Assembly (NCBI RefSeq): GCF_037042905.1
Contig: NC_087251.1
Coordinates: 7,752,001-7,816,000, forward strand
Direction: 5' to 3'
Length of the DNA: 64,000 nucleotides
Source: Lytechinus pictus
Lineage: Eukaryota
Shown here: positions 8,760 to 43,969 of the stretch, one piece after another
How the letters are laid out: each line of letters opens with the position of its first letter
How positions within the stretch are numbered: the first letter of the stretch is position 1
Translations under genes and position numbers: made by a program
Notes under the pieces: model-generated
The model's input: the letters and a program-made list of their open reading frames with translations, nothing else
The model's database searches: none
What the model was told of the DNA's origin: nothing

Positions 8760-8835
<76 letters not shown>

Positions 8836-11243: not shown

Positions 11244-11249
11244 TTTGAG

Positions 11250-17330: not shown

Positions 17331-17403
17331 ATGAAAAATGGTGTAAACTACTTCAGATTGTCGATAGGCGATACTTTTTTAATATTTGTCATTCATGATT
17401 ATG
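17331..17403 (+). CDS. Candidate upstream first coding exon of the SPRY-TIR gene
   Basis: ATG at 17331 opens 73 nt (MKNGVNYFRLSIGDTFLIFVIHDY+G) ending at a strong GTAAGG donor in phase 1. This matches the acceptor at 23868 (GT AGA ATG) in frame. It lies just after a CpG-rich stretch (about 16975-17300). Confidence 0.4.
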
Positions 17404-23389: not shown

Positions 23390-23602
23390 CCAAAAATGTA
23401 TTTTGCCCAATTGATCATGAGCCTGGTAGCCACTTTGCAGTGCCAGATCAACGAGGCTCCATCCCTTAGATATTAATTGCCAAACAGGGTAGCAGCGACC
23501 CCCATCTCTTTTATGTCTTTTGGTCTGATGCGGACGAGTTTGAACTCCCAAGTCCCAACCTCCTGGTTTGAGACGAACGCTCTACCAGTTGAGCCAACAC
23601 AC
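23390..23602 (-). mobile_element. tRNA-derived SINE
   Basis: On the minus strand: A-box-like TGGCTCAACTGG, tRNA-like TAGAGCGTTCGTCTC and B-box-like GTTCAAAC, followed by a non-tRNA body. Confidence 0.65.
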
Positions 23603-23872
23603 CAGTTGGGTGTGTTGGCTGACTTGACTCACATGGGTATCAACAAGGCAGTTCATTTTTAAAGTAACAATTAACGTAAAAGATGATAGAAGTCAGAACT
23701 GAGGAGGAACAAGAAGAGAAAGAATGAAATAATTAACAGCCTGGATTAAGAGAAAGATCTTGAATTGAAAATATCGTACATGAGTGAAGATCGACTAGGA
23801 AAAAGAAGAAGACTAAAATTTTCTTAAGATGAAAAATTGAACTTTCCCTGATGTTTCTGAATCACAGGTAGA

Positions 23873-26800
23873 ATGAGTTCCATACAACACAGTGATTTGG
23901 TGGAGGTTGGTGAAGATGGAGCAATCATTAGAATACAAGATTTAGTTGAAGGCTGGGAACATGTTGTCTTTGCTCAAGAAACTGGATCACCACTCTCCAA
24001 TAGTCATCCAGCGTTCCGGGTTAAGGTTGTGCAATTAGGTAAGTTTATATCACATCTATTAACCCATTTGGGTCAATGTGACCACATTTTTGGGTTTAGC
24101 AAATTATAACTTGGTGGAAACCCCTCAAAATACCATGAAAAGAAAAAGTTAACATTTTTGCAATACTGTTCCCAAATTGTAATTTTGGCATCATTTATCT
24201 TCTACACATTGCAAAAATTGTTTTGGAAAGTTAAGTCCTGAAATGGGATTTGGTCTTTAGAAACATTACTATCACTATTTTCATTCAAATAGGGAAATGT
24301 CTAATTTGTGTTAATTCTATTTACTATTTCTGATACATGAACTTTGAAATGAAAAAAAAATCAGCGATAACATTATTTATCAACTTTCTTACTTATTTTG
24401 ATTTCGATCTATATTCAATTGATCTACTGCTAATTCGTCCAATGAATCTACTCTCATTTGGTCTGCCATCATTTTGTCCACTATCCACTTGGTCTAATTG
24501 CCATCTCATCCACTCACCCTTTCGTCTAACAACCAGTTGGTCCAATAGCCATTTAGTCCACATACCATTCAGTCTAATAGGAATAAGTGTTGGGCAAAAT
24601 TAATGGAAATGAAATGGATATTAGACCAACTGGTTAGAAGACAAAATGGTCATAGACAAACTGGTAATTAGATAAAGTGATGATTGGACCAAATGGTTGT
24701 TAGACGAAGTGTTGATGGACGGAATGTCATTAGACTAAATGAAGGTACATGTAGACCATTTGGGGAGTAGACGAGTTGGCAGAAGACGAATTGGAAATTT
24801 ACCCTTATTTTGATAGTTTAAAAAACAATTTGATCAAATAAGGCTTTAGATTATTCATGAATCAAGATGAAAAATGATAAGAATTGCTTCACGTATTTTA
24901 AGTGTTTACAAAAGACCTTATAATGTTGTATGGTAGATTTTATTTAGTTCAAAAGTATTGTCAGCCTCTATTAAAGAAATATGGGGATATACAGTGTAGG
25001 GCAAGTCCAAGAATTCGCACGCGTTATGTATGGGACATTTCGAGGCTTTAATGACCTGAAAATAGTGTTTAATGACTTTGATTAGATTGAATACCCTCAT
25101 GATGGTAGACATCTAGGAGAAGAATAATCATGCACTAATGGTGAAAAATAACCTTGACCTTGACCTTTTAGAGAGAAAAGATGTGCCGCTACGTATGGGA
25201 CGTAGAAAAAAGACAATTTTTAAAACATTTTTTCAAGTTGAGAATTCTCTTAAAGTATTTCATTTGACAACTTGTAACTTAGTGTGATAGAAGTCACAAC
25301 ACTCTAGTATATCTAAGGCAAGTTTCATGCCATAAGCCCAAACCCTCTAATTACAGACTCTAATTAAACAAATTAATGACATGTAACGTATGGGACAGTT
25401 ACGTATGGGACATTTTGTCCCCAAAGAGAATGTACACAATTTTTCCCATAATTTCAAAAATTAAAATAATTTGAAATATGTACAGAACAAATAATTTTTT
25501 TTCTTTTGAAATGTTCTATTTTGAGACATATTTGATATGACTGAAAAGGAAATTAGCCTTTTCAACAATTTTTTTTCTTGTTTTTCATGGTTTCATGAAT
25601 TTCTTATGAATTTCTATTGTTTTTTATTTTTTTCATATTTTTCAATTTTCACAATTTTTTCATTTCGATTGTTTTCATTAATCAGTATTCATAAGAAATC
25701 AGTCTTTAAAAACTAAAGAAAAGGTAAATAATCACTTTTTTTAGCACTCTTGAAATTTGTTTTTCTCCACTCACTTTGTACACATATCTCCCCATTGACA
25801 TTGTGTGCAAATGTCCCATACGTAACATGTTGTCCCATACGTAACAATTTTTTAATTAACTTTTAATTAAAAAGTAAACTATATTTTGAAACTTTTTTTG
25901 GTATAACATTTTAATACTTAATAAATTAGAACTTCCCAGAGATGCAACAATACAAGTATTGTATTATGAGAAATAACTTAAACAAACATCCTCAAAATGT
26001 TACGTATGGGACATTCCATTCTTGGACAAGACCTAATTTGCATATTTAATTAGATGACACCACTTTTTGTCCCCAAAGGCAATAAGATGTTAGGGGCTCC
26101 ATGTCCCACCTATGACTAAATCTTACAAATTTTGTTTTGATTTTCTATGAGTTTTTATAATTGTCCCAAATGTAACGCCCATTTTACCAATTATGCAAAT
26201 TAGGTGCCCTAAATTAGCATAAATATGCATATTATGAAATTTTTCTCAATGAAATTTTAAAATTCAACATTTGTGCTTTCTTACCCCATCAAAGATAACT
26301 TCTTAAATTAAAAATGAAATTTTGCCTTCTAGGGTGACCTTTTCTTGGACTTACCCTGTACACTGAATAGTTCCTAACCGATTCAAGAGAATACTGTATA
26401 AGCTGTTATTTTCGCAGATTGCTGATCGGCCGCGAAAACGCTCAAAAATATTGACACATTTATCAGTCAGTGCCAGTGTCCTCAACAGCAAAGTTTTGCT
26501 ACTGAAAACATCCTGTGAAGTGAATAAAATGAGATATGCACCTTTATATGTACAAAAAATAAGGTTTAGAAAGTACAGTTAGTGATTCAAAAAGTTAGCT
26601 AGAATTTCACTTTTTTTTTTCTCAAACAAAATCAGAGCCTAAACTATTTTCTTACATAATTCTATCAATATTAATTCACTCACTGTAATATTAGAATGTA
26701 TTTTCCATGAAATAATTTGATTTTATTGTCATCTGATTGACTATATACACACGTTTTGGCAGCTATTTGCATACTCATTAATATTCATAAGTCACATGAC

Positions 26801-29800
26801 TAGAGCTTTCAGAGGGGTAAGAATCTGTTCGCAGAATTCAACATTTTTGCACTGAAACCAACTATTTACAAAGTGAATCTAACAAAACACAACTTCAAAA
26901 GATTACTCTTATACAGTGCGTCCCAGAAAAAACGAAACCGAGATTTAGCGATGATTTATCATAACTTAATCATAAATAAAATAGACAAATGACCTACCAA
27001 TGTAAAGCTTAGAATCTCCTCTTTCATCTGGTATTACTTAGATTATTCCTTATTCACGCATGATTGAGCAAAAACAATTCGAAGAAAGAATGCCAAAAAC
27101 TCATTTGGCGGGGGGTATCTGAATTTCATAAAGAAAATCACATGACTAAAAAGTTCAATATCTTCTCTTTTCTTTGATACCTAAATCACAGAAAATGGTC
27201 AAGTAGTAAAAAAGTTATGATCCCTTGAAACGATGCTTGTATTTCCATAATTTCATTTAATAAACGTTTTTTCACCGGTTTCCCACTGAAGCTATCGCAC
27301 GGTAACAAAAGACTTAATGCATGGCTGATCGTCAACAAAACGGAGTGTCGAGTGAGTTTGAAAGCTAGCCTGTAAAACATCTTCATTTTATGAAATTATT
27401 GAAATTCAAGCCTTATTTCAAATAACCAGAACTTTGTTATTTCTTGACCATTTTCTGTAATTGAGATATCAAATTAAAGAGCAGATATTGAACTTTTTAA
27501 AAATTTGGTTTTCTTTTTAAAACCCAGATACGGCCTGCCAAGTGATTTTTTGGTATCCCCTTTTCAAATTGTTTTTGCTCACTCATGCGTGAATGAGAAA
27601 TAATATAAGTAATTTCAGATGAAAGAGGAGATTCTAAGCTTTAAAATGGTAGGTCATTTGTCTATTGTATTTGCGATTAAGTTATGATAAATCATCGCTA
27701 AATCTCGGTTTCGTTTTTTGTGGGACGCACTGTATATCAAACCGTGACATGATGAATTTTTAGATCTAAAGGTACAAAAAGTGAAATTTAAGCCACTTTT
27801 TTCCACAATTTGTTACAGTTTGTAACTGTTTTTACCAGGACATATTAATGTATATGTCACACATCAGCATTAGGTCTATGTGAAACATAGTTTTGCACAT
27901 GGTTTGCACTAGTTATAGCTTCTCCCCAATGCTGTGGAAGTGTTTTGTACATCTTCTGATTGCAAATTTAACATCCCGTTCCGGGACCCCCGCGATTCGC
28001 AAAAAATTCTGTACGCAAAAATAACAGCTTGTACAGTATACCTATATTTGAAGTGAAATGGCAATCACATGAATCTGCTGTTCTATTAGAAAGAAAAACA
28101 GAGACAAGAAAAAAAATCCTTATATGATTATGGAATTTGAATCTGAGGCCTTATCAAAAATTCCAGGCAAAGATGCATCAGTAGGGATTGGAATCAGTTC
28201 CGAACCCATTGTCGAAGAGATAGAGAATGATGAGGAAGAACAATCACCTGACAGATCTCGAGATGCTCTTATGATCCATAGTGATAATGGATCTGTATCG
28301 TCTCCTAGTAGAGAGAGTAGAAAAAATGAGTCTTCCTCCTTTACAGAAGGTAAGAAATTTTCTGTGTTTTTATTTAAGGAGGGACATATTCTGTCCAAGA
28401 AATTTCTTCCTCAAACAGTATAAAGGACTCCCACTGAAGGACATTTTTACATTGATTTTATGAGATATGAATTTCATTTAGTAAAAAAAAAAGAGTCATA
28501 TAGCTTTATAGACATATCCTGATGCCATTACAGATGACAAAAATACAAATACAGTGAAAGAGACATGGCCAAGTTATTTTCATAAAATTATATGTAATTT
28601 GACATGATTATAGTATTGAATTTTGCATAAAAAAACAGAAGTCATTTAAATACTCTTTTACCTGTGTTTAGTTAGAAATTAATAGGCATAATTTTATCCA
28701 GATATTTTTTCTTGTTTTCACTGTTTACAGGGGATACAATAACACTTGTAATAGAACAACTCACTGCTCAAAAGTCTTTGGTTTGTATTTGGAAGAATGA
28801 CATGATCCAGTGTCGACAGTGGGTTACAATACAAGCTCGGAACCTGTATCCTACAATCAATGCATGGTGGGGTCCAGCAGAATTACATGTAGAGTGGCTT
28901 AGTTCTACTGTTCCTGAATTATCCATGGTAAGAGTGATCTACAAGTTACTTGTACAACATCAACGCATTATGAAATATCCTTTACATTTGGAGAGCGTTA
29001 GTGGACATATTCATTCTAACCAAACAGATACACTCTCTGTACCATTAACACTAATTTTGTAAAGACATTCTTCAATCATATTTTCATTGTGGAAAACAAA
29101 AATCATATACTGAGCAGATATCATGATATTCCTTACCACTTTCATTTATTTTTTTTCAATATTCCCTCACTTATCAACTTGAAAGTCCAGAATTTATAGT
29201 AAAAGAAGTATAGAGCATTGTATTTTTTGCCTTGTAAGGAAAGATGCCTATTACATTGCCTATCACATGATAATATTTATTTGTCTTATAGACAAACCTC
29301 AATCAATGGATGTCATCTAGTAACATCAAAGTTGAAGGTGATAGACTCAGTATCTTGGATGATAAGATAGGAGCAATCCAATCACCATGTACATTCCAAG
29401 ATGGTACGTATAACTCTGTTTACAATGCTTTATAAAAAATCTTCCCCACTTCCTCTTCCTCTGCTTTTCTTTACCATTTCCTTTCCTTTTTCCTTTGGAC
29501 AGATTCAAAGACCAATTGATCCAATGAAATGTTTTTTGTTCAAGTGTCAACTACATTATGGTATTTTGCTGTATATACTAAAAGCATATCCAGGGTTTTG
29601 ATTCTCCCTGCCTCTCCTCCGCCTCCCCTCAGAATTTTTGTTCAACCTGGAGAGTGTTTCATCATTTTTTTTGTCCCACAAGTTGTCAAGATTTGACAAC
29701 TTCCTTGATTTTGATGGGCTAATAAACACATTTCCTAAAGTAACTTTTGGATAAAACATACTTTTGACAAGTTCTTTCCTGAAATGCTCCTTAGTTCTGG

Positions 29801-32800
29801 AAATTATTAAAATTGTGTTGCTTTAGTTCCCTCTTATATACCCATGGGTTTACCCCAGTATGTTTATTGAGTAAATTCTACATCAAAATCATGTTTCTTT
29901 TTGATTGATTGATTTATTTTGATTGTTCCACTCTGCAGGTTCTAATATGTATTTTGAGATGAGCTTAGAATCAGTTGGTGAATGTCCAGTTAATGATGAT
30001 CATAAAGGGCCATTAATAGGGCTGACATCAGCAACCTGGTCAGGACATGAAGGATTGCCTGGCACATCTGAGTATACCATTGCTTATGATACAACCAAAG
30101 GAAAAATCCTCAATTGTGGACAGTCATCAAAGGGTAAATTTTCAATGTTTGTAAAGTGTAATGGACAAATTCAATGATATACTTGTATGATTTTTTTTTC
30201 CTAATACATCAGTTTGCCCTATTACTATAAACCTTATTGAATTTTCCTGTCTGTTATGGTAATGTACATGTAGATTTATTGACATTTTCATAATAAAAAA
30301 CACAACTCACTTACATAGCTGAATTGGTGAATATTAAAGTCAAGGGCCTCAGCCACATTGAATATTAAAAGTCCTAAACTACCCAAATAGTCCCATGTTC
30401 CCTACCCAGAATGCAACATTATGATCATATACAGTCTTATAGTTAATTTCCATGTGAATGGCAATTAATTATGTTATATTATTTGTGCACAAAAATATTA
30501 CAAAATTTGATATTTGCAAACAAGAAAAAACTATTACATTATACTCCAAAATAAATTCAGATCGAATGACTGCCATAAATTTCAGAGATAGATATTACAA
30601 TATACATGTAATTTCAACTATTCTATTGAAGATTATCATTAAATCTCATGTCCCTTTGGTTAGTGGATAGTTCCCTTTAAGTCAAGTGATTGATATTTTT
30701 ACCTTGGATTTTAAAATTTGATACTATACTGATGAATAATGAAGAGAAAGGTCAGAGAAACAAACTTCTCATAATGTCATTTTTTGCATGTCTTCATCTG
30801 ATATTTTTCTAACAGGGAAGAACCTAGGAGAGACTGGCAAGTGTAAAACTGGAGATACGATTGGCTGTGGTCTTCTACTTGTTGAAAATAAACCTTCAAC
30901 TGCTTCCCAGATGGTAGTCGTATACTTCACCAAAAATCATTCTGTCATACATCATTGTAATGTAACTCAGTCTACAGGTGGTTTCTATCCTACATGTGCA
31001 TTTGTCAGTAAAGGTGAGTCGCAATCTTCCTTTTGAAAACAAAAGAAAACTTGCTCTATATGCTTTTCTATTTTTATGTCAGAGGTTTTCTCCAAGGATG
31101 CAAAAGAAATGTATGATTACACAATAGTCATCAGATCTTATCAACAGCATGTGAACACCATTCCATGAAGCTTGTCCTCATGACAAGTTGTTATTCTCTG
31201 GTATTTACCACAGCAAAAGTCAGAAATCAGTAATTACTAGCCAATCAAAACCAAGGAGTTCACTGAAATAGTCATTGTTGACAACTTTTATGAAACATCC
31301 CCAGAAGTACTGTAGTACTGAAGTGTTCCCTTTTTCATGTCACTGAAAAAGCCAGCAATATTATAATTCACCAACTAGTATAAACCTTATGCACATGACA
31401 TTATAATCACATAGCGCCCTCCCTCAGAGGATATAGATATATGCTTAAACACAGTTGTCAGCTGCAGATCACCAACGCATGCAAGACAATGGCTTCAGCC
31501 TCTATGATGACGCCAATGCATCAGGTCCATTAGAGCAGAAAAACAAGCACAGTGATATGTACATCATCTCAAGACATACAGAATTTAGATTATGAATGAT
31601 GCCATTGCTGGCTATCCATATTAGAAATTAATTTGAATTATGTGCTTTGTATATCAAACCAGACACAGACCTGAATGGGGTTTCATGAAGCAGTTTGTAA
31701 GATTGGCATGAATTTATGCTTGATTGATGACCTGCTCTTGGGGGTCATATCAGAATCTTAATCATGTTTTATTCATAACAGCTTATATATAAGTCTGATC
31801 TTTGGAGATTAAAAAATCTTTTTGTTGTAAGCATCTTGAATACAAATTATAATTTGTCAAAAATTAATTAGGAATAGGGCTTTACTCATAATATTTTGAA
31901 ACCCAAGAACTGGTCACCAGTCATGCATAGAGCATTTTGTCAATAACTTTATGGATCATAATCCTTTAATTATGGGTACATGTATGTTTTGAACCATTTG
32001 ATTGCTATTTGTATTGTTTGGTTTTATTACTTCAGATTCTAGTGTGAGGCTGAACGTGACTGCTTCTGTACCGGAGCTTCCAGATAAAACTGATTGGTTA
32101 GCTAAAGCAAAGCGAGCACTAGAATTCCCGGGGCTGGAACTTTTTAATGGTAAGTTAATTGCAAACCAACTTTTCTCCTGAGCGCTCTACCTAAAAATAA
32201 ACAAGGATCATTGTCAGTTGTCATTTTATCAATGTATAACTGCCTAATTGCTTTTATTGCTTTCAACTTGTTTTATCAACAACACCAAGAACACATCCCA
32301 ATATTAACTACATGATATATAAAGATAATAGGTAAGATATTGATTATTCCTCTGAACTAATTGTGATTACCGGTATCTAAAACATGCAGTTAAGCACATG
32401 ATGTACATGTAATTTGATAATAGATTGAGGTATCCATAGAAGTGGTGCTGCCAAGAAATTTTCAGGAATATTGATTTTTAAGGCATTATCCAAGCTGACA
32501 CCGGTTTTAGATATGTAGTGTGATCTACCTTCTTAATTTGAGAAGGGACATTGTCAAATATATTTACCATAATGTAGGGATATTGGACAATCTGATCAAT
32601 ACTTTTTTTTTTCCTCTTCTGATCTTCTAATCTCTAGATACTTCTATTAAGAATGACAATAAGCAGCATGAAGAAGGAGTTACCAATGGCTACTTCCGTT
32701 TCTCTGAACCTGTTGGTTGTCCAACCAGTGATGTCATCAAACCTCAGTCTAAACTAAAGGATGGGAAGCTTCTTCAGCTACTCAAGACCATTACACCATC

Positions 32801-35800
32801 AGAACCTTACTTTACTGTCAAGATAGAAGAACTAAGTAAATCAAATCAATGTTTATTTATTTATTCATCTATTTATTTATTTATTTGAATTTTTCAGTGT
32901 TATTTTATTTCATTTTTGTTTTATTAGTATTATTATTATTTTTGTTTATTTATTCATTTTTTTTTTTTTTTGGGGGGGGGGCTTCAATTTAATACTTTAT
33001 GGTACCTATAAAGCAGCAATGCTGCTTTTTTTATATTTCTGGACGCAAAATTTTATTTAAAATCTATCCGTTGAAGATGAGCAGGGGTTCGTTTAACTTA
33101 ATACATACCTTGTATGATAGTAGACAAAAAAAAAATTTGAGTTATTACTCTTCTATATGGATGCACTGTAATCCAATTTAAATCACAGTGCGCTGCTTCT
33201 CTGTTTGTGTACTATTTATATTTATTTGGAATCAAATAAGAGGACTCTTGTATTATCTTATTACTCCCTCTGAAATATGAGCGTGAAATTTGTGAATCTC
33301 TTGTTTTTAGGAAAATAATTTGTTGGGATCCATTCATGAGGAATGTTGCCTTGTAATAAAGCTATTTATTTTCACATACAAATGAATTCAATACCATTTT
33401 CTAAAAGTATATTTCTTGTTTAACAACCAATATTTTTTCTTTAGGTGTGAACACATACATGTATCCGACTCATGCCTTTAATATGAGGGTCATAAGTAGG
33501 AATCCCAGCCATGATTGTAATTAATTTTGTTATGAAATTCAGATACATTGTGCTTTAGGTTTCCTTGGCTAGGTAAATTATTAGTTTGTTACCTGTTAGG
33601 ATTTAGTCCCTAAATGTAATGATTGATATTTTACATAGATAATGATGAAAGCTTGATTTGTGCTGGAGTCAGCAGAGGAGGTCAGAGCTGTGGCAGTGTC
33701 CCTGGTTCTCTTATAGACTCAGCAGGATATTCTTCTAATGGTGAAATACTTATGGGCAGTGATGGCCACTTTGCAGCTGAAAAAATGGAGAAAGGTATGA
33801 GGATTTGATCTTAGTTCACCTATAAATACCTGTTCTAATGCAGTATCACTTAAAGTGAAAAAAAAGGAAGTTGTGGTTAGAGTTTTGTCTTCTGAAAACT
33901 CTATCATATGGGCATTCCCATCAACCCTTCTTGTCTCGCCTGCATTGCAGAGCGAGACTATAGGCGCCGCTTTCCCAACAGCGGCGTCAACATTGTAATC
34001 TTAACCTAAGATTTAGTTATTTTAATGTAATCATAACTTAGAAAGTATATGGTCCTAGTTCATGAAACTTAGACAGAAGTTATCAAATATTACTAATCAT
34101 CCTGCCTGAGTTTCCTTTATAGGTCTCATGATCAAGGTCAAATGTCATTTAGGGTCAATGAACATAGTATTTTGTTTATCATTTGAATGGTGTTTTTTGT
34201 GATTAATCATTGTTTTCAAAGTCAGCTCTGCTGCTATATTGAATTGCATAATATGCAAATGAGACTGCCGGAGGTGCTCCACATGTTTTTATTTTTATAA
34301 TATTTACTCTGTTTTACAAACTGCTCAAGCGATCATAATGTGAGATCATTTACAGCTTTTCCAATGAACTAGAAAAGAAAGACAAATATGGAATTGCCCT
34401 TATAATCAATGAATGGGAAATTTCCATTACATATATGTATTCTGTCAAGTTGTGAGAAATATTTGTTTTTCCTTTGTCAATTCAACAAATGTCTTAGATG
34501 TTACTATTTTTCTGAAATAATTGCTTCATTCATCACCCTTCTGTCTCGTTACAGGTGATGTAATTGGTGTATATGTGCAATTCCTAGACCTGACTAAAGT
34601 TGTTCAGTTCATCAAAAATGGAAAATTGATGGGTCAGAGTATCATCAAGGGAAGCAACAAAGATATCTATCCAAGTCTTGGGTTTGGTGGTGAACCAGCA
34701 ACCGTACATGTAACATGGCCTACTGCAAGACCTGATGTACCACCCTCATTTTCAAAGGTCAGTTTGGAAGGTCTTTTGTGGAAATTATTCAGGTTTGATT
34801 AATGGTCAGTTCATAAAAACTTCAATTGCCAAAATATGGAGTGTCAGAAATTTACAGAGACCACTTTTATTATTAAATCCTCCATATAATTTACTAATAT
34901 TTTAGTTGTGTTGTAATTTTGGAACAATTTTTTTGATTGATGGATATAATTTGTTACCTGGGATATATATTAATTTGAAAATGATGAGAATAACACTCCA
35001 ATAATCCAATGCTGTAATTTAATTGAACACTTTTGATGTTTGTCAATGCACCAATTAGTGTATAAGAGGACAAGTTTAAAAATTGTGTTTGATACAACCA
35101 TATAACATAGTAATGAAACATTTTCTTGTATTTCTTTGTAATCCTAACTTTTTTAGGACAACTTTGAGAATTGGTTGAAAAGTCCTGATTTACTGATGAA
35201 TGGAAATAGACTCTGCTACGAGAAGAAAAAAAGAAAGCTTAAAGGCAGAATACTGGTATCACCTCAACCACTGTGTCATGGTATGTCAGTTAGCTAGAAT
35301 CTTTGCCAATTTTGTATTTGTATTTTGCAATTTAAGATAAAAATTTTGGTCAGGATGCAATCAGAAGTGTTTAAAGGAAAAATTAAAAAAATACCAAGAG
35401 AGTGCGCCATATATCAATGGTAAAATTTGAATTTTCACAAAGGATGAAAGGTCACTTCACTTTTGTAAGATTTAAATGCTCGATCAAACTCCATTCATAT
35501 CATTAAACTTTTTCCCATAAAGCTTTAAACTACTCTTTTGGAGTGATACCTAATATCCATTTGATGCTTGAACAGCCAAATATGTTATTGTGGTGATGGT
35601 GAAGTATTTTTTTTTCATAATGTAATAACTTCATGGGCTACAGTTGATAAAACATAATGATAGATACAGGTAATAATAATAGAACTGATAACGTTAATGA
35701 TATGCAGATTTATAGTGCACTTTATTACAAAAGGTACTAAGCACTGACAAGATATTCCCTGGTTTTAGCACAGCTTTCCTTTAAGAAAACATTCTTTGTC

Positions 35801-38800
35801 TATTTTCAGCATGGAGTTACTTTGAAGTAGAAATAAACTGCAAGAAGCTCTCTGAAAATGAGAGAGAGCTAGTAAAGGCTCCTGTTATTGGACTGACAAA
35901 CTGCTTGCGGCCCTCCAAGTTCAAGAAAATCGTCAATAACAAAGATACAAGAGATATCCGCTACTTTTGTCATACCAATTCCATTGGCTACATGGATTAC
36001 CTCAAACATGATAGTAAGTTTAAGGACCTGTTTATTCATTGTCATCAGGTAAAATTGATATCCCAGTGGATGGGTTATTATCATCATGTAGATAGAGGTT
36101 CAATGGAAGATCTGGATGTTTCTAAATCACTTTTCCAATGTGATGATATTGGAATGTCAAATTTGAATTACTTGATAATCGATACTCAACCTTTTAAGTA
36201 AACATGTACCTGTGATATATAGTGGGTCTGAAAACATGGGCAGGTTTTTGTTTGTAGATTTCAAGTTAATTAACCATTTGCCAATTCAAGGATAATGAAT
36301 ATTCCATTTTGGAATTTCTGTATATCTAATACAACATAATGATTGTAAACAAAAATATTTTCAGATGCAACATACAGAAACTAAGGAACAAAATTAATAC
36401 AAACTGTGTTGAAAAAATTATCTACCCACTTTGATTTTCCATATTATTTTATATCACATAAACAAATAAAATATGTCAATTTAGAAACTGAGAAAGTGTT
36501 AAGAAATGATAAGATAGTGGAAATTTTGTCATTTTGAAATAATTGTCTTATCTATTTCCTTTTGTTTTCTGTTATTCAGTGTTCCTATTAAATGGATACT
36601 TAGAGAATGGTGACCGGATTGGTTGGGGCGTGATGTATCCATCATCTAAGAACATTCCTAGTGATCTGACTAGACAGATTGTTATTGTATATTGCTGTAT
36701 TAATGGACAGATCATGTATCACAAACCCATGGAACAACCTGGTGGTGGTTTCTATCCAGTTATAACCCTCTACAGATATGGTAAGTAGTGTCTTGCTAGC
36801 CAAGGGTGGACAACTGGATTATGGAAAGCCATTTGGATATCTCAGTTTTTTTATTTCAGCTGTTGTAGTTGAAGAATACACATGTTTATTATATGTTGTA
36901 ACAGTTGAGACTTGAGAAGACATTTTTACAGTGAAGTACAAGTTTGCATCAGTCAGATTTAAAGTATTTGAAATGTAATGAAGTTTGTTTGAATTGTCGG
37001 TAAAAAACTTTTGGTTCACATTTTGCACTCTAGAATCCAGTCATTGTAAAGACATGCATTGCTTCGTGAGCAGCTTTATGAAACACCCCCTAGGTAGAAA
37101 AATTGTCCTCTTGTATTCTTTTAAATAGACGGGCCGTTTGTTGATATGTATGGATCTATCAGACCTTTTTATGTTTTATAATGCAGGTCAATGATGAAGA
37201 GGTGAATTGTTAGATATTTAGCTTTATAGAAAATATTTCATCAAGACCATGTGGATTAATGATATTTATCATTATGTGAATGACCAGGGCCATCATTGTA
37301 TACTTTGCTTTACTTTTGCAAGTGTCTTCAGTGATTGAAAAAGTGTTTTGCAAATGTACTTGTAATGGGTTTGAACTGTTTGAAATCATATCCCTGGATC
37401 AGAATTTGTTTTTTTTAACAGCATATCAATGTTCATATAAGAGAGATTTACAATGTTGTGTGTTTGGTGTACAGGAGAAGAAGCTTCCTTGCTGATTAAC
37501 AAGCCTCCACCTAGATTCCCAGACATCTTGACATGGGTTGAAGAAGCTGATGCCTTCAAGATGGAAGTTGATAAACAGCGGAAAGCTGCAGGTAGGTCTA
37601 TCATCAATGTCTCCTGTATCCATTCATGTTTCTTCTATTTGCTTTAATCAATGATATCTTAATAAAAAAATATCCGTCAATATCTTGTGTACCATAATGC
37701 ATTAGGCATTCACTGAGGATATTCTCAAAACAAAACTTTCTTTTTCAATTAACAATTAAAGAAATCTCTTTAACCTTTCTTACACTTTCCTTCCTATATT
37801 GTAGAGATATTTCTTCTTTGAATACTTAGAGACACCATACAATATTTTTTGAAAACCACTATTGACCCCATGGTTAGGGTGGCTATATGTGATGTAATGT
37901 GATGAAATGTGTTACAATAGAAGTTCGATTAGAAGTTTTCTTCCTGTTAAGTACATATATATTTTATATGTCATCAAAACAGGTTTATGGATACCAGTTC
38001 AGCAGATTTAGATCTAGAGTTGGGGTCGTTGTATGGTCTGTTGCGTTCTTGGTAGAAACTTGGAATATTTCAAGTTTTTTTTTTTTATTATATCATGCGA
38101 TTACTAAAACTTGGAGCATCTTCATAGATTTGATATTAATACAATAAAATAATTTCCAAATATTTTATGGTAATATAATGAAATAATTAAGGTTATTTAT
38201 TAGCCAATGTAGCCAGTGACACAAGGTGTGCTGTTTTGTGTTTTACATTTGCAGAATTTGTGCTATATCTACCATACCTCATGCGCCCTATCTTGCCCTC
38301 AAAACAAAAGTTTCGCCGAGGTATGTTGGAACCTATCAATGGAAGGCCAAATGATAGGATTGGTTTCTGCATGAAACTTTGTCTAAACCAGATGTTTAGC
38401 AAAATTATGTTAAAAACCTGTCAAGAAAGATTGACTTGCTTTTGGATTTCTGGAATCTAGCTGTCATGGACTGCATGTTCTTTTGTCTGAAGATTGGTGA
38501 CTAAATTATTTATTATGTAGATGGTGTCCAAAGACTTCTTTATGATTGATTTATGAGAATTTTTTAAATTTAGTTTCAAATTTTCACAGATGGATAATGG
38601 ACTATGTAATAGTTCAGTTTTTAGAGGGCATTTGCACTTGAGGTTATGTGTAGGAGTATCATGTATTATACTGCAGAAGCTGAAACTTCGCTTTTGGTTT
38701 TATTATCGATTGCGCCTATTGCCATAAGGCAATCATGCATGAAAAAAGAATATAAGTATTGATAATGCAGATTATTGTAAAACTATAAACTAAATATTGG

Positions 38801-41800
38801 CTTTTTAAGTATCATATCTCAAATGATCAAATAATGCATATAGGCATGTAGAGGAAAAGTAGAAGCCAGTCCTTTCATTTGACTTTCCAAACAATTTTAC
38901 TTATAACCAGAAAAGCATTTTTTATATATCACTGCTTGTTCACACTGTAATAGCTGAGAAATCAAGATAGTGACTAGTGCCCAATCATGGAAGAACTATT
39001 GTTACAATTGATTGCATTCATCATAAATGTTCAATCAAATGTAGAAATCAAATGATGAGTTACTAAACGCTGTATTATGGGACCATAGATTACTTATTAA
39101 AGAAAACATCGATAGATTAAATGGGGTGTATTTTTTACAGTGAAATTGATTTAGTGGGTGAAGAGCTAATAAGCGAGATGTATTTTTTGTATTTTCAACA
39201 AATTCTTTTTCTTATTTTCTCATTATTTTTGTGTGCTTTAGAATTCCATTCAGTAGTGCCTTTTCAACTAACAACTAATATTATGTAGAATTTCACATGT
39301 AATAATATCCTTATGGTAGTATTAGATCTTGGGAAGTTCAAATATAATTTGATTTGAAGGTAGTATACAGATTGGTTTAGTGATTTCATTTTACTTACAG
39401 AACATGAGCATGGGGGCTGCATGTATTATTGATACATATGCTCCAAGACTAAAAATTAAGAAAGTAATTTTTTCTCTGTATGATTTGTGCTTATCATGTT
39501 CATTTTATGAGTTGGAAATTAATACTGAATTTATCTGAAAATTAAACTATCTACAAATATATTTTGCATATACATCTTCTGGCGCAAAGGGCATTTAGCA
39601 TTACTTAATCTTTCAAGAAATTGTTTTGGTATTAAAAAATATGCATACTACTGTTAAAGACATTGAATGTACTCATGTATATATTTTCCTCTGCTTTTTC
39701 TTTTATTTGCAGGTCAGCACAAGCAGACTTCAGCTGATAGAAGAGCTAGACCTGCAACTCCATGTAAACGACCTGATAATCATCTCAAGAAATATACTAT
39801 CTACCTACACTGTGATCCACAGAGATACAATGAAGCTACTCATATACAATCCAGGTATGTATTAGTCACTCTTCATCAAATATATCTAGATAGTGCTCAC
39901 ATTAATGGTTTGTTTTTTATCTGTGAGGAAACATAAATGTATCCAAAGCCCTGTGTACACTTAACATCAGATCTGTGACCCAATTTTATTTTTTTCATTT
40001 ATTTTTATTCTATTTATATATTTTTTTTGGGATAGGTTGTTATTAACAGGTCAATATGAAAGTTCAAACATACTAGAGTTAAAGTTATGGATGTTACTAA
40101 CCCTGTTTAAGAAATTGGTTATGGGAACATTATGGGAATCCAATTTGGATATTGGTCACATTTAAATGCCTGTAGTTAGTCAAACTTTTGAATCCCTGTA
40201 ACTGCTTTACTGCAGTGATGAACCTGAAAAACCTTGTCGGGGGGGGGGGGGGACCATTTGTAGATAACTTTTATGACAAGCAATCAAGTGGAGGTGCAGT
40301 GGCCAAGTGGTATAAGGCGCTTGATGGGAGATTCCATTCCTGGCACGGCACTTATGCCCATAATAATAATAATAATATATGTGATTTGTAATGCGCCAAG
40401 TCCACTCGGCAGAGTGCCCAAGGTGCAGTGAAAGAAAGAAAGAGAAAAGTACAAATAATACAGTAATAGATTCAGGAACAATTAAGAGTAGGAAGCATTG
40501 CTATTTTATCAAATAAATGAAAATGCTATATGCATTATGAATATCAGTGTGTGGATTTTTGTTATCAGTTGTCAAGTTTGAACGCTTCCTCCCCCCTCCC
40601 CATGTATGCTAGTGTTTAATTTGAGTAGATTTTTTAAATATTATCATTGGAAAAAAACATTGCATGACTACGGTTTACTGATTATATCCATGTGTGCATT
40701 ACTGTTTTTTTTATTTTCATTTATTGCATACAGACTAGATGCAAAGGGTTTTGTAACAAGACTCCTTCCTGAAGACAAAATCAACAGCTCTAACATTTCT
40801 CAACTGATTGATGATCATATTTCTTCCTGTACGTCTGTGATATGCTGTATGGGCCCAGAGATTAGTGAGACCTCACACATGGGCCAGGTCCTGGAGCTAG
40901 CCCAGAAGAGATCCAAACCAGTATTACCCTTCATCTTAGAATCCTTCAAATGGCCTCCAGAAGGAAGCCTTCAGAAGGAGTGGCAGAAACTTGTCTTGCA
41001 TAAGATCGGTGAGTTATTCACAGATATAATGTTGTGCTTAATATCAATCTTTGCCAATATTAATAGACACCCTTGATTGGGCCTGAATTTCAGATAAAAG
41101 ATGGGAACCAGTTGAAGTAACATTACCAGAATCCAATCAAATGACTACCATGCATCTGTATAGATGTACTCATATCGTGTGCCAAATGATCTTGCTACAA
41201 AATTAGTAATTGCTCAAAGTTAAGCCATATAAAAGGCCAAGTGTTCTTTCATTACATTGGCATAATTTAAGCGCCTTTTGCAACACTTATGTATTTAGTA
41301 TTGGACGTTTCTCATTGTAAGCACTGAATTATACACACAAATTACAGAGTCCATGGTATTGCACCCCTCTTGATTTAAACTGCTTTTGTGAATTCAGGCC
41401 ATTGAGTATATAATAGTTTGTTTTTCCAGAATTTCCTCTGGTTTTTTTCAGGATCAAATACCTACCTAATTAAGAATCGTTGTGTACTGTGAAGCCTCTA
41501 CTTTTAAACTGTATCTTAAAACATAATTCTTGAACAAATAATTCTTGTTTTGCAGAGACAAGTGGAGACTTTGATTGGGCCATAGAACAAATTGAAGAGA
41601 AGACATTGACTCTCAAGGACAAGGGTTACAATGGTAAAGAGATCAGGGTGGTTGAAGGAAAGGGAGCTAAGATGCTCTATTCAGACGCTCAGGTGAGAAA
41701 TCTTTTGGAAATTGATATTCACTTCTATGTCAATTATTACCCATTCAAGACATTACAGCCCTGTAAAATCGTAGATAAGATTGATCGCACATTGGTCTTT

Positions 41801-42235
41801 ACTAAAATGTTACAAAAGAATGTTATCATTAATTACATCTCTTTATGTTACACCCACTATCCAAGCAGGTTGATTCTTAGATGTAATTGACTCTGTTTGG
41901 AAAAAAATGACAATCAGAATGATTAAAAAGAAAAAATTATCTCTCTTTTTATGACCCATCAGAAAGGAAACAAGACGATTAATGAGAGCAGTGATCCAAA
42001 TGCACTGAAGAAAGCCATAGCTGATGCAGATCGTCATAAGCTACAATCGTTTGGTAGCGATGACTACCCTGAAACCAGAGGAGGGGGTGATCATGGAGCA
42101 GCAGGAGGAGGGGCAAGGTCATTCTCATTTACCTCTCTCAAGGAACCAAAGAAGCACATTGATGATGGACCTAAGAGACCTCATTCTAGTCATGGTGGGC
42201 GTGTTAATCAATCAAAGACTTGTATTATACTCTAA
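23873..42235 (+). CDS. Multi-SPRY (SPRYD3-like, 4 SPRY units) protein with C-terminal TIR-like domain and CaaX motif; 19 coding exons, about 1086 aa
   Basis: Exons 23873-24038, 28167-28349, 28731-28927, 29292-29403, 29939-30133, 30816-31013, 32036-32149, 32638-32835, 33639-33794, 34555-34757, 35157-35280, 35810-36013, 36580-36780, 37475-37591, 38255-38320, 39713-39854, 40734-41008, 41556-41692 and 41963-42235. All are AG/GT bounded and phase-compatible, giving a 3261 nt open frame. SPRY-type motifs: YFEMSL/YFEVEI/YFTVKI, GDTIGCG/GDVIGV/GDRIGWG, VYFTKN/FIKNG and GGFYP/LYP. The TIR-like segment is in exons 16-17 and the protein ends SKTCIIL*. Confidence 0.88.
24435..24803. repeat. Foldback-like element made of short degenerate repeats in inverted halves
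   Basis: The left half repeats TT(G/C)GTC(T/C)AA-type units; the right half has the complementary TAGAC(C/G)AA units. Confidence 0.55.
24992..26365. mobile_element. Non-autonomous DNA transposon (CAGTG termini)
   Basis: CAGTGTAGGGCAAGTCCAAGAA...TTCTTGGACTTACCCTGTACACTG, with multiple internal (T)ACGTATGGGACA motifs in both orientations. Confidence 0.7.
26394..28036. mobile_element. TA-flanked TIR element (outer), hosting 26914-27732
   Basis: TA|CTGTATAAGCTGTTATTTT...AAAATAACAGCTTGTACAG|TA. Confidence 0.6.
26914..27732. mobile_element. Tc1/mariner-like non-autonomous element with long TIRs
   Basis: TA|CAGTGCGTCCCA.AAAAAACGAAACCGAGATTTAGCGATG...TGGGACGCACTG|TA. The inverted similarity extends for a few hundred bp. 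Confidence 0.88.
33935..34280 (+). repeat. Dispersed repeat, same family as 12240-12500
   Basis: Starts GTCTCGCCTGCATTGCAGAGCGAGACTATAGGCGCCGC and shares sequence blocks with the copy at 12240. Confidence 0.6.
38451..38725 (+). repeat. 275-bp direct repeat, copy 1 (intron of the SPRY-TIR gene)
   Basis: Near-identical to 44175-44449. Confidence 0.9.
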
Positions 42236-43317
42236 AATCAATGTCGGTTTACCGCTCTTCTGAAATTATTTTTTGCTCTTTTGTCTGTATTCACATATTT
42301 ATATTGTGCTTTTCAGCATATGTATTGGTAACCCTTGCATGTGCTTTCAATAATTAGGAGTCCTGTTTCTAATGAGTGATATTTTAAATTTATCAAGTAA
42401 TGGAAGCTATAGATATTTTTGTTTCATTTAAGATATTTAACAGCTGTTTATACCAAAACCAAATACCCTTTTCACCATGATATAGAAATATCATTGACTC
42501 CAAATGCATGAAAATAGGATTGTGCCATATCATTTTTGTCTTTTAATTTCAACCCCAGATATATTTTCATAATTTTGATATATATCTTAAAATCATGTCC
42601 TTGTATTCCCATGTGATTAAGAATGTGTCATCTTTTCTCAAGATGTTCATTTGTGTTCAGGCTTATTGAGAAATTGTAAAAATTATAAATTGGAATAGCT
42701 ATTTAACAAAATAGTGATCCCTGATACTGTATTCAGCATATGAAAATGGTTTGTTAACTGCAGGGAAACATACATTTGTATACATTCAAATCTTCCACCT
42801 AAAGCTATAGTTTTACCTGTACTTTAATATTTTTAGCTTTGTTAATCACACTGATTGTACTTAAATCAGGCTGCTTGTCAGGGGAACCTTCAGTTACCTG
42901 TCAAATATTTGGGCAATAATTGATGAAAGAAAAATGTAAATGACTGATGATTATCCTAATAGCACTCTTCACGGAAAAATCAACTGAGGGGATGAACTCA
43001 GACATCAGTGATGGCATACAGTTCTTCGTACTTATAGTACATAATTCTCAAGTTAAAGTATGTTACGTGACAAGACTGCATATACTATGCATGTAATAAA
43101 GCCCTCATAAAACTAGATGTGCCTGAAATCTCTTTATCATACTCTCTTAAGTTGGGTTTTGAATGCTAAGTCCACAAAAACTCTGCTTCAAAATTGTTTG
43201 ATTCAACCAAAATTCTAATTTAAGTATCCCCCATTAAAACCTTGAACATGTGTGAGCTTTCAAATTTTATGCAAATTTCTACTTTATGATAAACCAGAAT
43301 TGTGTCCCCTGCTTGAA

Positions 43318-43969
43318 CCCCGGGGGGGGGGGGGGGGGGTCACTCTCCACATGGACTGCTACCCACCCGTGTCCGACAACCTCAGAAATGCACCATAAAC
43401 GGCATAATGACATGTAAATTTGCAACCCTAAACGGCGTAACCCATGAGAAAAGCCACCCTAAGTGGCGTGAACAGGGAAATCCCCTAATTTGATACCCTA
43501 AGTGGCGTAAACATCAAAATCGATTAATGTGATACCTGTGGACCGTGTGCATGTGGGTTACGCATGCTGCCTAGTATAGAGCTAGATGTAAGACACTAGC
43601 ACTAATAGACTAGAACTGTACAGGGGTAACTCTCGAGTGCTGCGCTGGCCGCGCCGGCGTGTGGGAGGATTGTTTTGTAAATCGCCTTTCATGGTGTTTA
43701 TAGCTTAGGTCTGCTCCCGGGTCTCCTCAAATTTTCACCCCTAAATGGCATAACCAAATTAGCAACCCTAAACGGCGTGAAGAGAGAAAGAAAAGGCTAC
43801 CCTTATCGGCGATTTACGAGCGAATGGTGCTGAAATGCAACCCTTTTTGCCAAAGACGTCGACGCCGCCCGAGTGCCTGAAACGGGACCCTTTTCGACGC
43901 TTTTTCTGGACGCGGGTGCGTAGCAGGCCATGTGGAGAGTGACCCCCCCCCCCCCCCCCCCCCCCCGGG
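43318..43969. mobile_element. Unclassified TIR element with poly-G/poly-C termini
   Basis: CCCG(n)TCACTCTCCACATGG...CCATGTGGAGAGTGAC(n)GGG, with CTTGAA on both flanks and internal ACCCTAA(A/G)(C/T)GGCGT repeats. Confidence 0.8.

Follow-up and report, generated by a model that had tools for sequence, protein, structure and literature searches.

Does a single sea-urchin protein join four SPRY units, a TIR domain and a signal for lipid attachment, and if so, what could such a protein do? The question was raised by the initial annotation of a 64,000-nucleotide stretch of Lytechinus pictus DNA (NC_087251.1, positions 7,752,001 to 7,816,000; the window, to which all coordinates below refer), which proposed a phase-consistent reading frame of 19 exons and about 1086 amino acids and saw in its product a candidate membrane-anchored innate-immune sensor or adaptor.

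The gene and its transcript

Exact spliced mapping reproduced the coordinates, the exon count and the length of the proposed frame. The gene, LOC129265046, occupies 23873-42235 on the + strand, where residues 26-1111 of its 1111-residue protein (P0001, to which all residue numbers refer) are encoded in 19 exons. All 18 introns are of the GT..AG type in this mapping, the coding parts sum to 3261 nt (1086 codons plus TAA), the frame is open and phase-consistent over all 19 exons, and the nr protein is identical, letter for letter, with the 19-exon translation, which ends in ...SKTCIIL. The peptide stretches quoted in the annotation map to exons 16 and 17, and the gene is present as a single copy in the L. 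pictus genome. Isoform X1 has an alternative coding exon further upstream (17331-17403, + strand; identified by tblastn and translation), which encodes the first 24-25 residues of P0001, joins an acceptor at about 23868 and carries in the window one Phe codon more than P0001.

The RNA evidence comprised stranded raw RNA-seq (runs X19 and X20) and contigs (X1 and X15). Among the joints listed, at least 15 of the 18 introns appeared as GT..AG RNA joints with 3-33 reads per run, which bears out the proposed splicing. The first mate was always on the - strand, so that the RNA derives from the + strand, and the depth of expression was ordinary in both runs. Contigs run on from exon 19 (X1 record 3 to 43106 and X15 record 9 to 43309), giving a 3' UTR that extends at least over 42236-43309 on the + strand, and X1 record 1 has 127 extra letters upstream of 23867. 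LOC129265046 is confirmed as a real, expressed sea-urchin gene.

The joints 32835>33639, 37591>38255, 38320>39713 and 37591>39713 do not figure among those listed. Since the last three are the joints among exons 14, 15 and 16, the link between the SPRY and TIR parts is supported indirectly, in three ways: read depth is similar over the exons of both parts, the X1 contigs break exactly at the cassette exon 15 (the terminal exon of record 2 being exon 14), and full-length models from eight other species have the same domain order. Exon 15 (38255-38320, + strand, placed by mapping) is a cassette of 66 nt that encodes 22 hydrophobic or basic residues, and its bin depth of 1.06 and 2.48 fits, by our arithmetic, inclusion in most transcripts. 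It is found in models from three sea-urchin species, and not in S. purpuratus isoform X2 or in any non-echinoid model. The unlisted joints and the interruption of the X1 contigs between exons 14 and 16 would also suit an annotation artefact, in which a multi-SPRY gene had been fused to a separate TIR gene. We consider such a fusion highly improbable: a break of the assembler at a cassette exon is expected from a splice bubble, exon 15 is covered and the depth is similar on both of its sides, the reading phase is kept across 19 exons, and the eight other species, which represent five classes or phyla, have colinear models about 1000-1110 residues long. Moreover, P0014, a 273-residue piece of an ortholog from a contig of 1296 bases, starts within the helix that precedes the TIR domain, and neither a start codon nor a promoter-like break has to be assumed. 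The similar depth and the colinear models thus uphold a single transcript unit for SPRY, TIR and CaaX, as had been assumed.

The SPRY array, the TIR domain and the C-terminus

The four SPRY units of the initial annotation were recovered as four beta-sandwich modules in the AlphaFold2 prediction (residues 29-199, 219-382, 428-585 and 611-781); all exons that encode them lie on the + strand. For SPRY1, exon 1 (23873-24038, with the ATG at 23873; joint 24036>28165) supplies the N-terminal strands, exon 2 (28167-28349) an acidic insert predicted as a low-confidence loop (pLDDT below 50 at residues 104-111 and 128-132) and exon 3 (28731-28927; mapping, reads, AlphaFold2 and hhalign) the C-terminal strands. 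SPRY2 begins with the phase 0 exon 4 (29292-29403; mapping and reads), continues through exon 5 (29939-30133; mapping and reads) and exon 6 (30816-31013; SPRY with an E-value of 0.012 from the exon alone) and ends in exon 7 (32036-32149; mapping, reads and AlphaFold2), which also encodes a helix (393-402) and a linker. Exon 8 (32638-32835; mapping and AlphaFold2) covers a disordered linker and the start of SPRY3, exon 9 (33639-33794) contributes to SPRY3, the best Pfam SPRY stretch being residues 471-578, and exon 10 (34555-34757; SPRY with an E-value of 0.19) completes the unit. SPRY4 starts with exon 11 (35157-35280, phase 0; mapping and reads) and runs through exon 12 (35810-36013; mapping and reads) and exon 13 (36580-36780; mapping, reads and the hhalign link to SPRY2) to exon 14 (37475-37591; joint 36779>37474), where its last strand is followed by the start of a long helix (793-823).

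Profile comparison by hhalign connected the units, with probabilities of 99.1% for S1-S3, 99.9% for S2-S4, 96.5% for S1-S2 and 98.2% for S2-S3; the pairs S1-S4 (74%) and S3-S4 (24.5%) were weaker, and the control of each unit against the TIR domain gave 0.1-0.4%. As exons 4-7 and exons 11-14 moreover have equal phases (0,1,1,1) and similar sizes, the array seems to have arisen by duplication of a two-SPRY unit in an ABAB order. The Pfam family SPRY (PF00622) matched P0001 in two stretches with 53.1 bits, above its cut-off of 26.3, and together with the predicted beta-sandwich fold this places the protein in the family; for S. purpuratus P0004 the family was not listed at E <= 1. The closest solved SPRY chains by profile were SPRYD3 (2yyo, 2.3e-20) and RanBP9/10 (5jia, 5ji7 and 7nsc, about 1e-10). 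SPRYD3 2yyo also matched residues 218-387 by sequence (E-value 1.2e-7) and, with a TM-score of 0.76, in the Foldseek search, which retrieved RanBP10 and the SPRY arrays of RyR as well. A PRY family was absent from P0001 at E <= 1 in Pfam, and the nearest chains were SPRYD3 and RanBP9/10 rather than TRIMs. Judged from these matches the units appear to be of the SPRYD3/RanBP9 kind rather than of the TRIM/pyrin B30.2 kind, so that the TRIM and pyrin analogy drawn originally probably does not hold.

The TIR domain follows on the + strand in exons 16 to 18. Exon 16 (39713-39854; joint 39851>40731) encodes a conserved linker of basic residues and proline (RARPA[ST]P), strand A and the start of helix A, exon 17 (40734-41008) the core from helix A to strand E, including the motif KPVLP...WPPEG and residue V936, and exon 18 (41556-41692; mapping and reads) helix E and the first part of a conserved extension. 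The assignment made originally, a TIR_2/SARM-like domain, was borne out by structure. The predicted model (pLDDT 86.2, pTM 0.81) has strands at its positions 11-16, 37-40, 64-69, 93-97 and 121-122 with intervening helices, and matched TIR-1 of C. elegans with a Z-score of 14.9 (rmsd 2.6 over 131 residues) and human SARM1 with 14.2, the latter being the top Foldseek match (E-value 6e-5). Hydra TRR-2 (13.8), RPS4 (13.6), MyD88 (13.6) and MAL (12.3) followed; the top six by Z-score (13.2-14.9) all contain a TIR domain. The model therefore indicates that this is a true TIR fold, flavodoxin-like with five beta-alpha units and similar to that of SARM1 and TIR-1.

At the level of sequence the domain is harder to recognize. 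TIR_2 (PF13676, cut-off 28) scored 29.4 bits (E-value 1.3e-6) on the isolated segment of 167 residues, 25.4 bits on full-length P0001, which is below the cut-off, and 23.3-26.8 bits on the orthologs; exon 17 alone gave 3.1e-5, and the fragment P0014 yielded no Pfam family at E <= 0.001. Membership of TIR_2 is thus indicated for the isolated segment and, if judged by Pfam only, borderline. When a separate HMM was made from 11 Death-TIR_2 segments and no other sequences, it matched 10 of 10 proteins from ambulacrarians with 31-47 bits along almost its full length, the pairwise alignment of the domain with P0111 runs without gaps over 110 residues, and the language-model neighbours of the segment are TIR_2 clusters (0.95). 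Sequence searches from P0001, including a profile at E <= 10, reached none of the solved TIR chains.

The annotation had named both scaffolding of immune signalling and NADase activity as functions of TIR domains. We take the glutamate column in helix C to be that of the catalytic residue of NAD+-cleaving TIRs such as SARM1. With the column placed by sequence alignment to TIR_2 relatives rather than by residue-level structural superposition, the ten ambulacrarian rows have V in seven cases (V936 in P0001), T and L once each, and E in Saccoglossus only, whereas all 11 bona fide TIR_2 segments have E. P0001 accordingly lacks the catalytic glutamate of NADase TIRs, and the V, T or L in nine echinoderm-type rows makes a scaffold role likelier than NADase activity. 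Two residues further on, several species, among them L. pictus with E, have an acidic residue (E, D, D, D and D), and Q, A, R and K occupy this column in Diadema, Amphiura, Anneissia and Saccoglossus, respectively. Where the TIR_2 relatives share a glycine-rich stretch (GGGD), after the second strand and before the following helix, the group of P0001 has an unrelated stretch. Considering the acidic residue at +2 and the hemichordate glutamate, the domain may have residual or ancestral enzyme activity.

Behind the TIR domain lies a highly conserved extension of 50 residues, which at 54-100% identity is the best-conserved part of the protein. Its remainder is encoded by the coding part of exon 19 (41963-42235, + strand), together with a tail of about 60 residues that is predicted to be disordered (pLDDT below 50 at 1047-1111), the CaaX box and the TAA. 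The codons of the box, C-I-I-L, map to 42221-42232 on the + strand. An ending SKxCx[IL]L, as in the SKTCIIL noted originally, is shared by 10 of the 11 rows of alignment A2, the remaining row being a truncated gene model, while the tail that precedes it has merely 12-44% identity outside S. purpuratus; such a pattern suggests that the box is under strong constraint. The endings in A2 are CIIL (twice), CVIL, CVLL, CSIL (three times), CLIL and CTIL (twice), in which a1 is often polar (S or T). A CaaX box that closes with Leu directs a protein to geranylgeranyl transferase I, and prenylation is normally followed by removal of the three terminal residues and methylation of the cysteine. The combination of Cys at -4, an aliphatic a2 and a terminal Leu, present in the same ten rows, marks them as candidate substrates of the GGTase-I class.

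Relatives and taxonomic range

Orthologs are found in the Echinoidea, Ophiuroidea, Asteroidea and Crinoidea and in the Hemichordata, with colinear full-length models in S. purpuratus, Diadema, Amphiura, Acanthaster, Patiria, Asterias, Anneissia and Saccoglossus. In the source records they are named 'uncharacterized', 'hypothetical' or 'SPRY domain-containing' throughout, and precomputed Pfam entries, where present, name the TIR domain in one of six. In our literature search we found no paper on the gene, on the architecture or on the CaaX ending shared by the relatives. The architecture, unusual as originally proposed in so far as our search met no description of it, is no one-off: it belongs to an ortholog group across the Ambulacraria, and its two halves, four-SPRY-CaaX and TIR_2-CaaX, are widespread in other invertebrates.

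The first half is seen in lophotrochozoan proteins of about 755-876 residues (P0017 of Patella, P0021 and P0173 of Crassostrea, P0027 of unionids, P0049 of Mya and P0131 of Seison), which are colinear with residues 65-781 at about 24% identity (E-value around 1e-41 for P0017 and P0021). Like P0001 they have a helix after SPRY4, a short tail and an end of the SKxCxxL type; unlike P0001 they have no TIR domain (hhalign 0.1-0.4%; SPRY only in Pfam). The second half is represented by uncharacterised Death-TIR_2-TIR_2 proteins (e.g. P0082 of Diadema, P0114 of Branchiostoma and P0083 of Mercenaria), whose TIR sequences are the closest to that of P0001, with 23-28% identity in an almost gapless alignment and a shared KP[IV][IL]P...WPPxG motif. 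A C-terminus [SK]SKxCxxL occurs in 22 of the 24 nearest TIR relatives, of the Death-TIR-TIR type from molluscs, amphioxus and urchin, versus a CaaX ending in 0 of 21 giant multi-SPRY proteins. The Death-TIR_2-TIR_2 proteins have a Death domain and two TIRs without SPRY, whereas P0001 is the reverse with one TIR; they keep the GGGD loop and, in all 11 segments, the glutamate, and lack the post-TIR extension. When 11 relatives of the TIR region were scanned with Pfam, 9 had a Death domain, and none was detected on P0001, P0004, P0011 and P0159, for which reason P0001 was not assigned to the MyD88-like or Death-TIR adaptors.

In pulmonate snails (P0036 of Biomphalaria, P0197 of Bulinus and P0198 of Lymnaea), proteins annotated as 'SPRY domain-containing protein 3-like' have four SPRY units colinear with P0001, a C-terminal region that matches TIR profiles (hhalign 73-92%, E-values 7e-7 to 3e-5) and contains the WPP motif, and an end in CQIF or CQLL. 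The full four-SPRY-TIR-CaaX architecture thus seems to be shared by these snails, although their TIR-like part is far more divergent than that of P0001 and is missed by Pfam; they have the glutamate in the canonical column (3 of 3), and lack the conserved extension.

Among named proteins, vertebrate SPRYD3, which we take to be a two-SPRY protein, matches a single AB pair within the ABAB array. SPRYD3 and RanBP9/RanBP10 have no TIR domain, unlike P0001, and the SPRYD3-like matches (e.g. P0077, P0091, P0097 and P0104) lack a Cys at -4; RanBP9/10 carry LisH/CTLH modules. SARM1 and TIR-1 belong, like the TIR of P0001, to the TIR_2 branch of Pfam and superimpose with an rmsd of 2.6-3.1 over 127-131 residues at 13-14% identity. 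SARM1 has ARM and SAM domains, whereas P0001 (SPRY and TIR_2 only in Pfam at E <= 1) has a SPRY array and a CaaX anchor instead, and Val in the Glu column; orthology with SARM1 was rejected because the ARM repeats and the two SAM domains are missing. A parallel in principle lies in the sorting adaptors of the vertebrate TLRs, of which TRAM is myristoylated and MAL/TIRAP binds lipids, and in innate-immune proteins that are prenylated, OAS1 p46 and the GBPs among them: all are placed on membranes by a lipid or a lipid-binding motif without a transmembrane helix, as we propose here. TRAM and MAL/TIRAP have another kind of anchor at the opposite end of the protein and no SPRY, and share only the TIR fold (Z-score 12.3 for MAL).

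Possible roles of the protein

On balance we lean towards a cytosolic, membrane-held scaffold or adaptor, in which a geranylgeranyl anchor is combined with a non-enzymatic TIR domain and a client-binding SPRY array. A C-terminal geranylgeranyl group on CIIL would hold the protein on the inner face of the membrane, and the disordered leash of about 60 residues would connect this anchor to a folded unit of the 50-residue helical extension and the SARM1/TIR-1-like TIR, from which the long helix would bridge to the four SPRY units. The array would bind protein clients, and the echinoderm TIR, being non-enzymatic, would act via TIR-TIR contacts with membrane receptors or adaptors. The lipid modification, the membrane location, the binding partners and any immune role are what we infer from the domains and motifs. 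In this arrangement the protein would be an adaptor or regulator rather than a primary sensor. Indeed, the sensor reading of the initial annotation fits less well, as a single-copy gene that evolves slowly (83% identical to its S. purpuratus ortholog and 34% to that of a hemichordate) is more in line with a conserved adaptor or scaffold than with a sensor in an arms race.

The same conservation could be explained by a membrane scaffold outside immunity, active in trafficking, at the cortex or cytoskeleton or in development, with the TIR as oligomerisation or docking module and the SPRY units binding housekeeping clients. We hold this to be rather unlikely, albeit a serious option. In its favour, the gene is single-copy and colinear from hemichordates to sea urchins, its best-conserved part is the unassigned extension, its expression depth is ordinary in the two RNA runs, and SPRYD3 and RanBP9/10, the nearest named relatives, function outside immune sensing. 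Moreover, colinear four-SPRY-CaaX proteins without TIR exist in bivalves, limpets and Seison, which implies that the SPRY and anchor core works without it. What argues for immunity is the company of the TIR domain, since its closest relatives are Death-TIR-TIR proteins, with the domain set of MyD88-type adaptors, and all TIRs among the best structural matches belong to immune or cell-death proteins. Two of these matches, TIR-1 and SARM1, are NADases, and a SARM1-like effector could be envisaged in which a ligand on the SPRY array releases or clusters the TIRs at the membrane, leading to NAD+ cleavage or a nucleotide signal. The canonical glutamate of Saccoglossus and of all three pulmonate proteins agrees with such an effector, as does the glutamate of L. 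pictus two residues past the column; it nevertheless appears quite improbable given the substitutions in the nine echinoderm-type rows, the replaced GGGD stretch and the lack of conservation of the acidic residue at +2 in four genera.

Returning to the membrane-held adaptor, a broader and decidedly speculative extension, unlikely as we judge it, would make the gene one face of an ancient, undescribed class of TIR proteins that bear a prenyl anchor in invertebrate bilaterians, with four-SPRY-TIR-CaaX members in ambulacrarians and pulmonates and Death-TIR-TIR-CaaX members in molluscs, amphioxus and echinoderms. These would be lipid-tethered TIR platforms in the role of TRAM and MAL, the SPRY array would be the recogniser of ligands, so that one polypeptide would join recognition, membrane placement and TIR signalling, and an ancestral NADase, whose glutamate is kept in the hemichordate and the snails, would have turned into a pure scaffold in the echinoderms.

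From bacteria up to humans, TIR proteins have a central part in innate immunity and in cell death, and their position in the cell decides their action. LOC129265046 has a TIR fused to a four-SPRY array and to a conserved geranylgeranylation signal, in a family that is under-annotated. The loss of the glutamate in echinoderms and its retention in a hemichordate offer a natural comparison of enzyme and scaffold, and knock-out is practical in L. pictus, which is kept as a laboratory sea urchin. What appears new is that the CaaX ending is common to 22 of the 24 nearest TIR relatives and to the lophotrochozoan four-SPRY proteins, a pattern which suggests that invertebrates commonly anchor TIR proteins by a lipid. 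If these proteins are truly prenylated, a lipid anchor would be a general means of bringing TIR adaptors to membranes in these animals, one that has so far gone unremarked.

A single-copy gene and its transcripts

The window consists of AT-rich DNA of animal type (GC 0.31-0.42). The best match to its largest TIR-like exon was P0001, a protein of 1111 residues that is identical to the window and is listed in nr as 'uncharacterized protein LOC129265046 isoform X1 [Lytechinus pictus]'; four proteins were found at E <= 0.001 among 40 candidates. Residues 26-1111 map exactly, when spliced, to 19 exons at 23873-42235 of the + strand, with introns that are all GT..AG and a coding total of 3261 nt (1086 codons plus TAA). 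The coordinates, exon number and length in the initial annotation are the same, and the peptides quoted there are present in + strand stop-to-stop frames between 23861 and 42235. Isoform X1 has a further exon upstream on the + strand (about 17331-17403), in which the window holds one Phe codon more than the nr sequence of P0001, a difference between alleles or assemblies. A query composed of the TIR and the tail matched only the four exons of LOC129265046 itself and three weak TIR loci elsewhere in the 812-Mb genome; the gene is single-copy.

In the flanks (1-17000 and 43400-64000), 58 stop-to-stop frames of at least 75 residues yielded no Pfam family at E <= 0.001, and the whole window gave no match to Rfam. 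Two 21-bp tandem repeat arrays at 51579-51843 and 53287-53709, about 1.4 kb apart and with mutually reverse-complementary units, together resemble a foldback-type element. The strong purine skew of the bins at 8689-8990 and 19399-20061 is due to long GAAA-rich microsatellites.

Transcription was analyzed over 23500-43400 by aligning the reads of two stranded raw RNA-seq runs (X19 and X20) together with contigs from two further ones (X1 and X15). Among the joints listed, GT..AG joints were seen for 15 of the 18 introns, with 3-33 reads per raw run, and the same 15 are present in the contigs. Joints 32835>33639, 37591>38255 and 38320>39713 are absent among those listed, beyond which there are 26 further joints. 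The first mate of joint-spanning reads always lies on the - strand, which in the usual stranded libraries means that the RNA derives from the + strand. In X1 one contig stops with exon 14 and another starts with exon 16. The 66-nt exon 15 between them is absent from isoform X2 of Strongylocentrotus purpuratus (P0002), and a contig break at this exon is what an assembly splice bubble produces. Moreover, the read depth per bin is similar across the SPRY and the TIR exons, and the depth of the exon 15 bin (1.06 and 2.48), scaled for 66 nt, is near the exonic depth elsewhere. Thus, exons 14 and 16 are likely joined directly in one transcript.

Several other read accumulations lie in or close to the gene. 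The segment 33931-34244 in intron 9 (contig word depth above 15,000, at least 1000 RNA reads per run, loose ends at 34121 and 34163, no Rfam match) is probably a dispersed repeat or a piece of an abundant RNA made elsewhere. The high-copy segments 24164-24827 and 26820-28147 in intron 1, with word depths in the thousands and reads from both strands, are presumably interspersed repeats. A pile of 98 reads with loose poly-T ends before 38075 (intron 14, X20) and one with loose poly-G ends before 43322, within the mapped 3' UTR or immediately past it, may be artefacts of the libraries or mark where an unrelated transcript ends.

Domain composition of the protein

Pfam recognized SPRY in P0001 with 53.1 bits (cut-off 26.3). 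The AlphaFold2 model of the full-length protein, made with 11 relatives (mean pLDDT 72.7, pTM 0.55), contains four beta-sandwich modules (S1-S4, at residues 29-199, 219-382, 428-585 and 611-781), a helix (793-823), an alpha/beta domain (865-995), two helices (1011-1024 and 1035-1047) and a disordered end (1047-1111). It resembles the SPRY arrays of ryanodine receptors, SPRYD3 (2yyo, TM 0.76) and RanBP9/10 according to Foldseek, and a sequence profile search of the PDB likewise returned SPRYD3 (2yyo, 2.3e-20) and RanBP9/10 (around 1e-10). Profile-profile comparison linked S2 to S4 (99.9%), S1 to S3 (99.1%), S2 to S3 (98.2%) and S1 to S2 (96.5%), with 74% for S1-S4 and 24.5% for S3-S4; the TIR, taken as a control, gave 0.1-0.4% against each SPRY unit. 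These links, together with the identical phases (0,1,1,1) and similar sizes of exons 4-7 and 11-14, show that the array is a two-SPRY unit duplicated in ABAB order. In P0003, an S. purpuratus protein of 1173 aa from metaclust, the segment from SPRY4 to the helix is present twice, in identical tandem copies, which suggests an artefact of an old assembly or model and not a real isoform.

With Pfam, TIR_2 reached 25.4 bits on full-length P0001, below the cut-off of 28, and 29.4 bits on the isolated 167-residue segment, which is above it; the S. purpuratus protein P0004 gave TIR_2 alone (23.3 bits). Neighbours of the segment among 1.84 billion representatives carry TIR_2 at 84-161 bits, accompanied by a Death domain in nine of the 11 that were scanned. 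An HMM built exclusively from 11 such Death-TIR_2-type segments recovered all ten ambulacrarian proteins (31-47 bits), and the language-model neighbours of the segment are TIR_2 clusters (0.95). Its predicted fold (pLDDT 86.2, pTM 0.81) matched Caenorhabditis elegans TIR-1 best among 48,161 chains (Z 14.9, rmsd 2.6 over 131), followed by SARM1 (Z 14.2), Hydra TRR-2 (13.8), RPS4 and MyD88 (both 13.6), and SARM1 headed the Foldseek list (E 6e-5). By sequence, no TIR chain in the PDB was found with P0001 alone at E <= 1 or with the profile of the 11-row alignment A2 at E <= 10. The protein was rejected as a SARM1 ortholog; its Pfam composition is SPRY plus TIR_2.

The best conserved part of the protein is formed by the 50 residues after the TIR (1001-1050), with per-domain identities of 54-100%. 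This extension matched no known family in Pfam, and a language-model search with 996-1111 gave no usable match. The next 54 or so residues are disordered in the model and show 12-44% identity outside S. purpuratus. A Cys at -4 combined with an aliphatic a2 and a terminal Leu constitutes the signal for geranylgeranyl transferase I. The four sets of SPRY motifs, the TIR-like region and the CaaX ending of the initial annotation can all be recognized in these results: the first correspond to the four beta-sandwich modules linked by profile comparison, the second is confirmed as a TIR by the Pfam score of the segment, its TIR_2-bearing neighbours, the HMM, the language model and the structural matches, which contradicts the refuting case named there, absence of a TIR fold, and the third, SKxCx[IL]L, is retained as the final seven residues in 10 of the 11 rows of A2 despite the poorly conserved, disordered tail. 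The eleventh row, Ptychodera P0013, comes from a truncated model without any of the C-terminal part.

Distribution of the architecture

Colinear full-length orthologs of 1005-1111 residues are found from Echinoidea (Lytechinus, Strongylocentrotus, Diadema), Ophiuroidea (Amphiura), Asteroidea (Acanthaster, Patiria, Asterias) and Crinoidea (Anneissia) to Hemichordata (Saccoglossus). The CxxX ending extends further. Judged by the C-termini of the stored matches, it occurs in 22 of the 24 non-orthologous matches to the TIR region, mostly as [SK]SKxCxxL, in proteins from molluscs, amphioxus (Branchiostoma P0114) and Diadema (P0082). Of the 55 other matches of at least 400 residues, nine have such an ending, and it is absent from all 21 giant multi-SPRY proteins. 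Among the nine are TIR-less proteins from Patella, oysters, unionids, Mya and Seison, about 755-876 residues long; two of these proteins are colinear with residues 65-781 of P0001 (24% identity, E around 1e-41). Judged from sequence, the ambulacrarian architecture is thus the union of two widespread families with predicted prenyl endings.

Three proteins of pulmonate snails (Biomphalaria P0036, Bulinus P0197 and Lymnaea P0198; 955-977 residues) contain four SPRY units, and their last four residues are CQIF or CQLL. Pfam missed a TIR in their C-terminal region; comparison of this region with TIR profiles (hhalign 73-92%, E 7e-7 to 3e-5) and the retained WPP and Glu are suggestive of one. The four-SPRY-TIR-CaaX architecture may be older than the protostome-deuterostome split.

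The source names of the family members are all 'uncharacterized', 'hypothetical' or 'SPRY domain-containing'. A survey covering the TIR-domain families of bivalves and of Metazoa reportedly defined 'ecTIR-DC' classes, among which SPRY-TIR or Death-TIR-TIR may already figure. No literature was found on LOC129265046, LOC577229 or the SPRY-TIR architecture. Searches for SPRY, TIR and sea urchin returned only unrelated TRIM work, and in the papers retrieved on TIR domains and prenylation no title or opening of an abstract concerned prenylated TIR proteins. The word 'SPRY' is absent from passages of PMC6321704, PMC8662601 and PMC6043800, and passages of the review of SPRY partners by Kaur et al. 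(eLife 2021, PMC8195603) name RING, HECT, NACHT and Death-like domains as such partners, and not TIR.

Enzyme or scaffold

The ambulacrarian TIRs align almost without gaps to 11 bona fide TIR_2 segments, with which they share KP[IV][IL]P...WPPxG. The relatives have an invariant Glu (motif C-x-R-E), which we take to be the catalytic residue of TIR NADases. In P0001 the same column holds V936, and the ten ambulacrarian rows have V (seven), T, L and, in Saccoglossus, E. The acidic residue two places past this column is unconserved and the glycine-rich stretch of the TIR_2 relatives is substituted. Considering these three features, the echinoderm TIR domain is most likely a scaffold. A SARM1-like NADase effector, with SARM1 among the structural matches and the Glu kept in Saccoglossus, is quite improbable given the V/T/L column in the echinoderms. 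The orthologs are colinear and the SPRY and TIR exons are covered alike by reads; a gene-fusion artefact was considered and rejected, and we give it next to no credence. A scaffold that acts at the membrane outside immunity deserves some consideration, although we regard it as rather unlikely.

We lean, with slightly more confidence than doubt, towards a scaffold that a geranylgeranyl tether would hold at the membrane. Its SPRY array would bind clients, and the non-catalytic TIR with the conserved extension would engage TIR partners there, so that the protein is predicted to be an adaptor or regulator.
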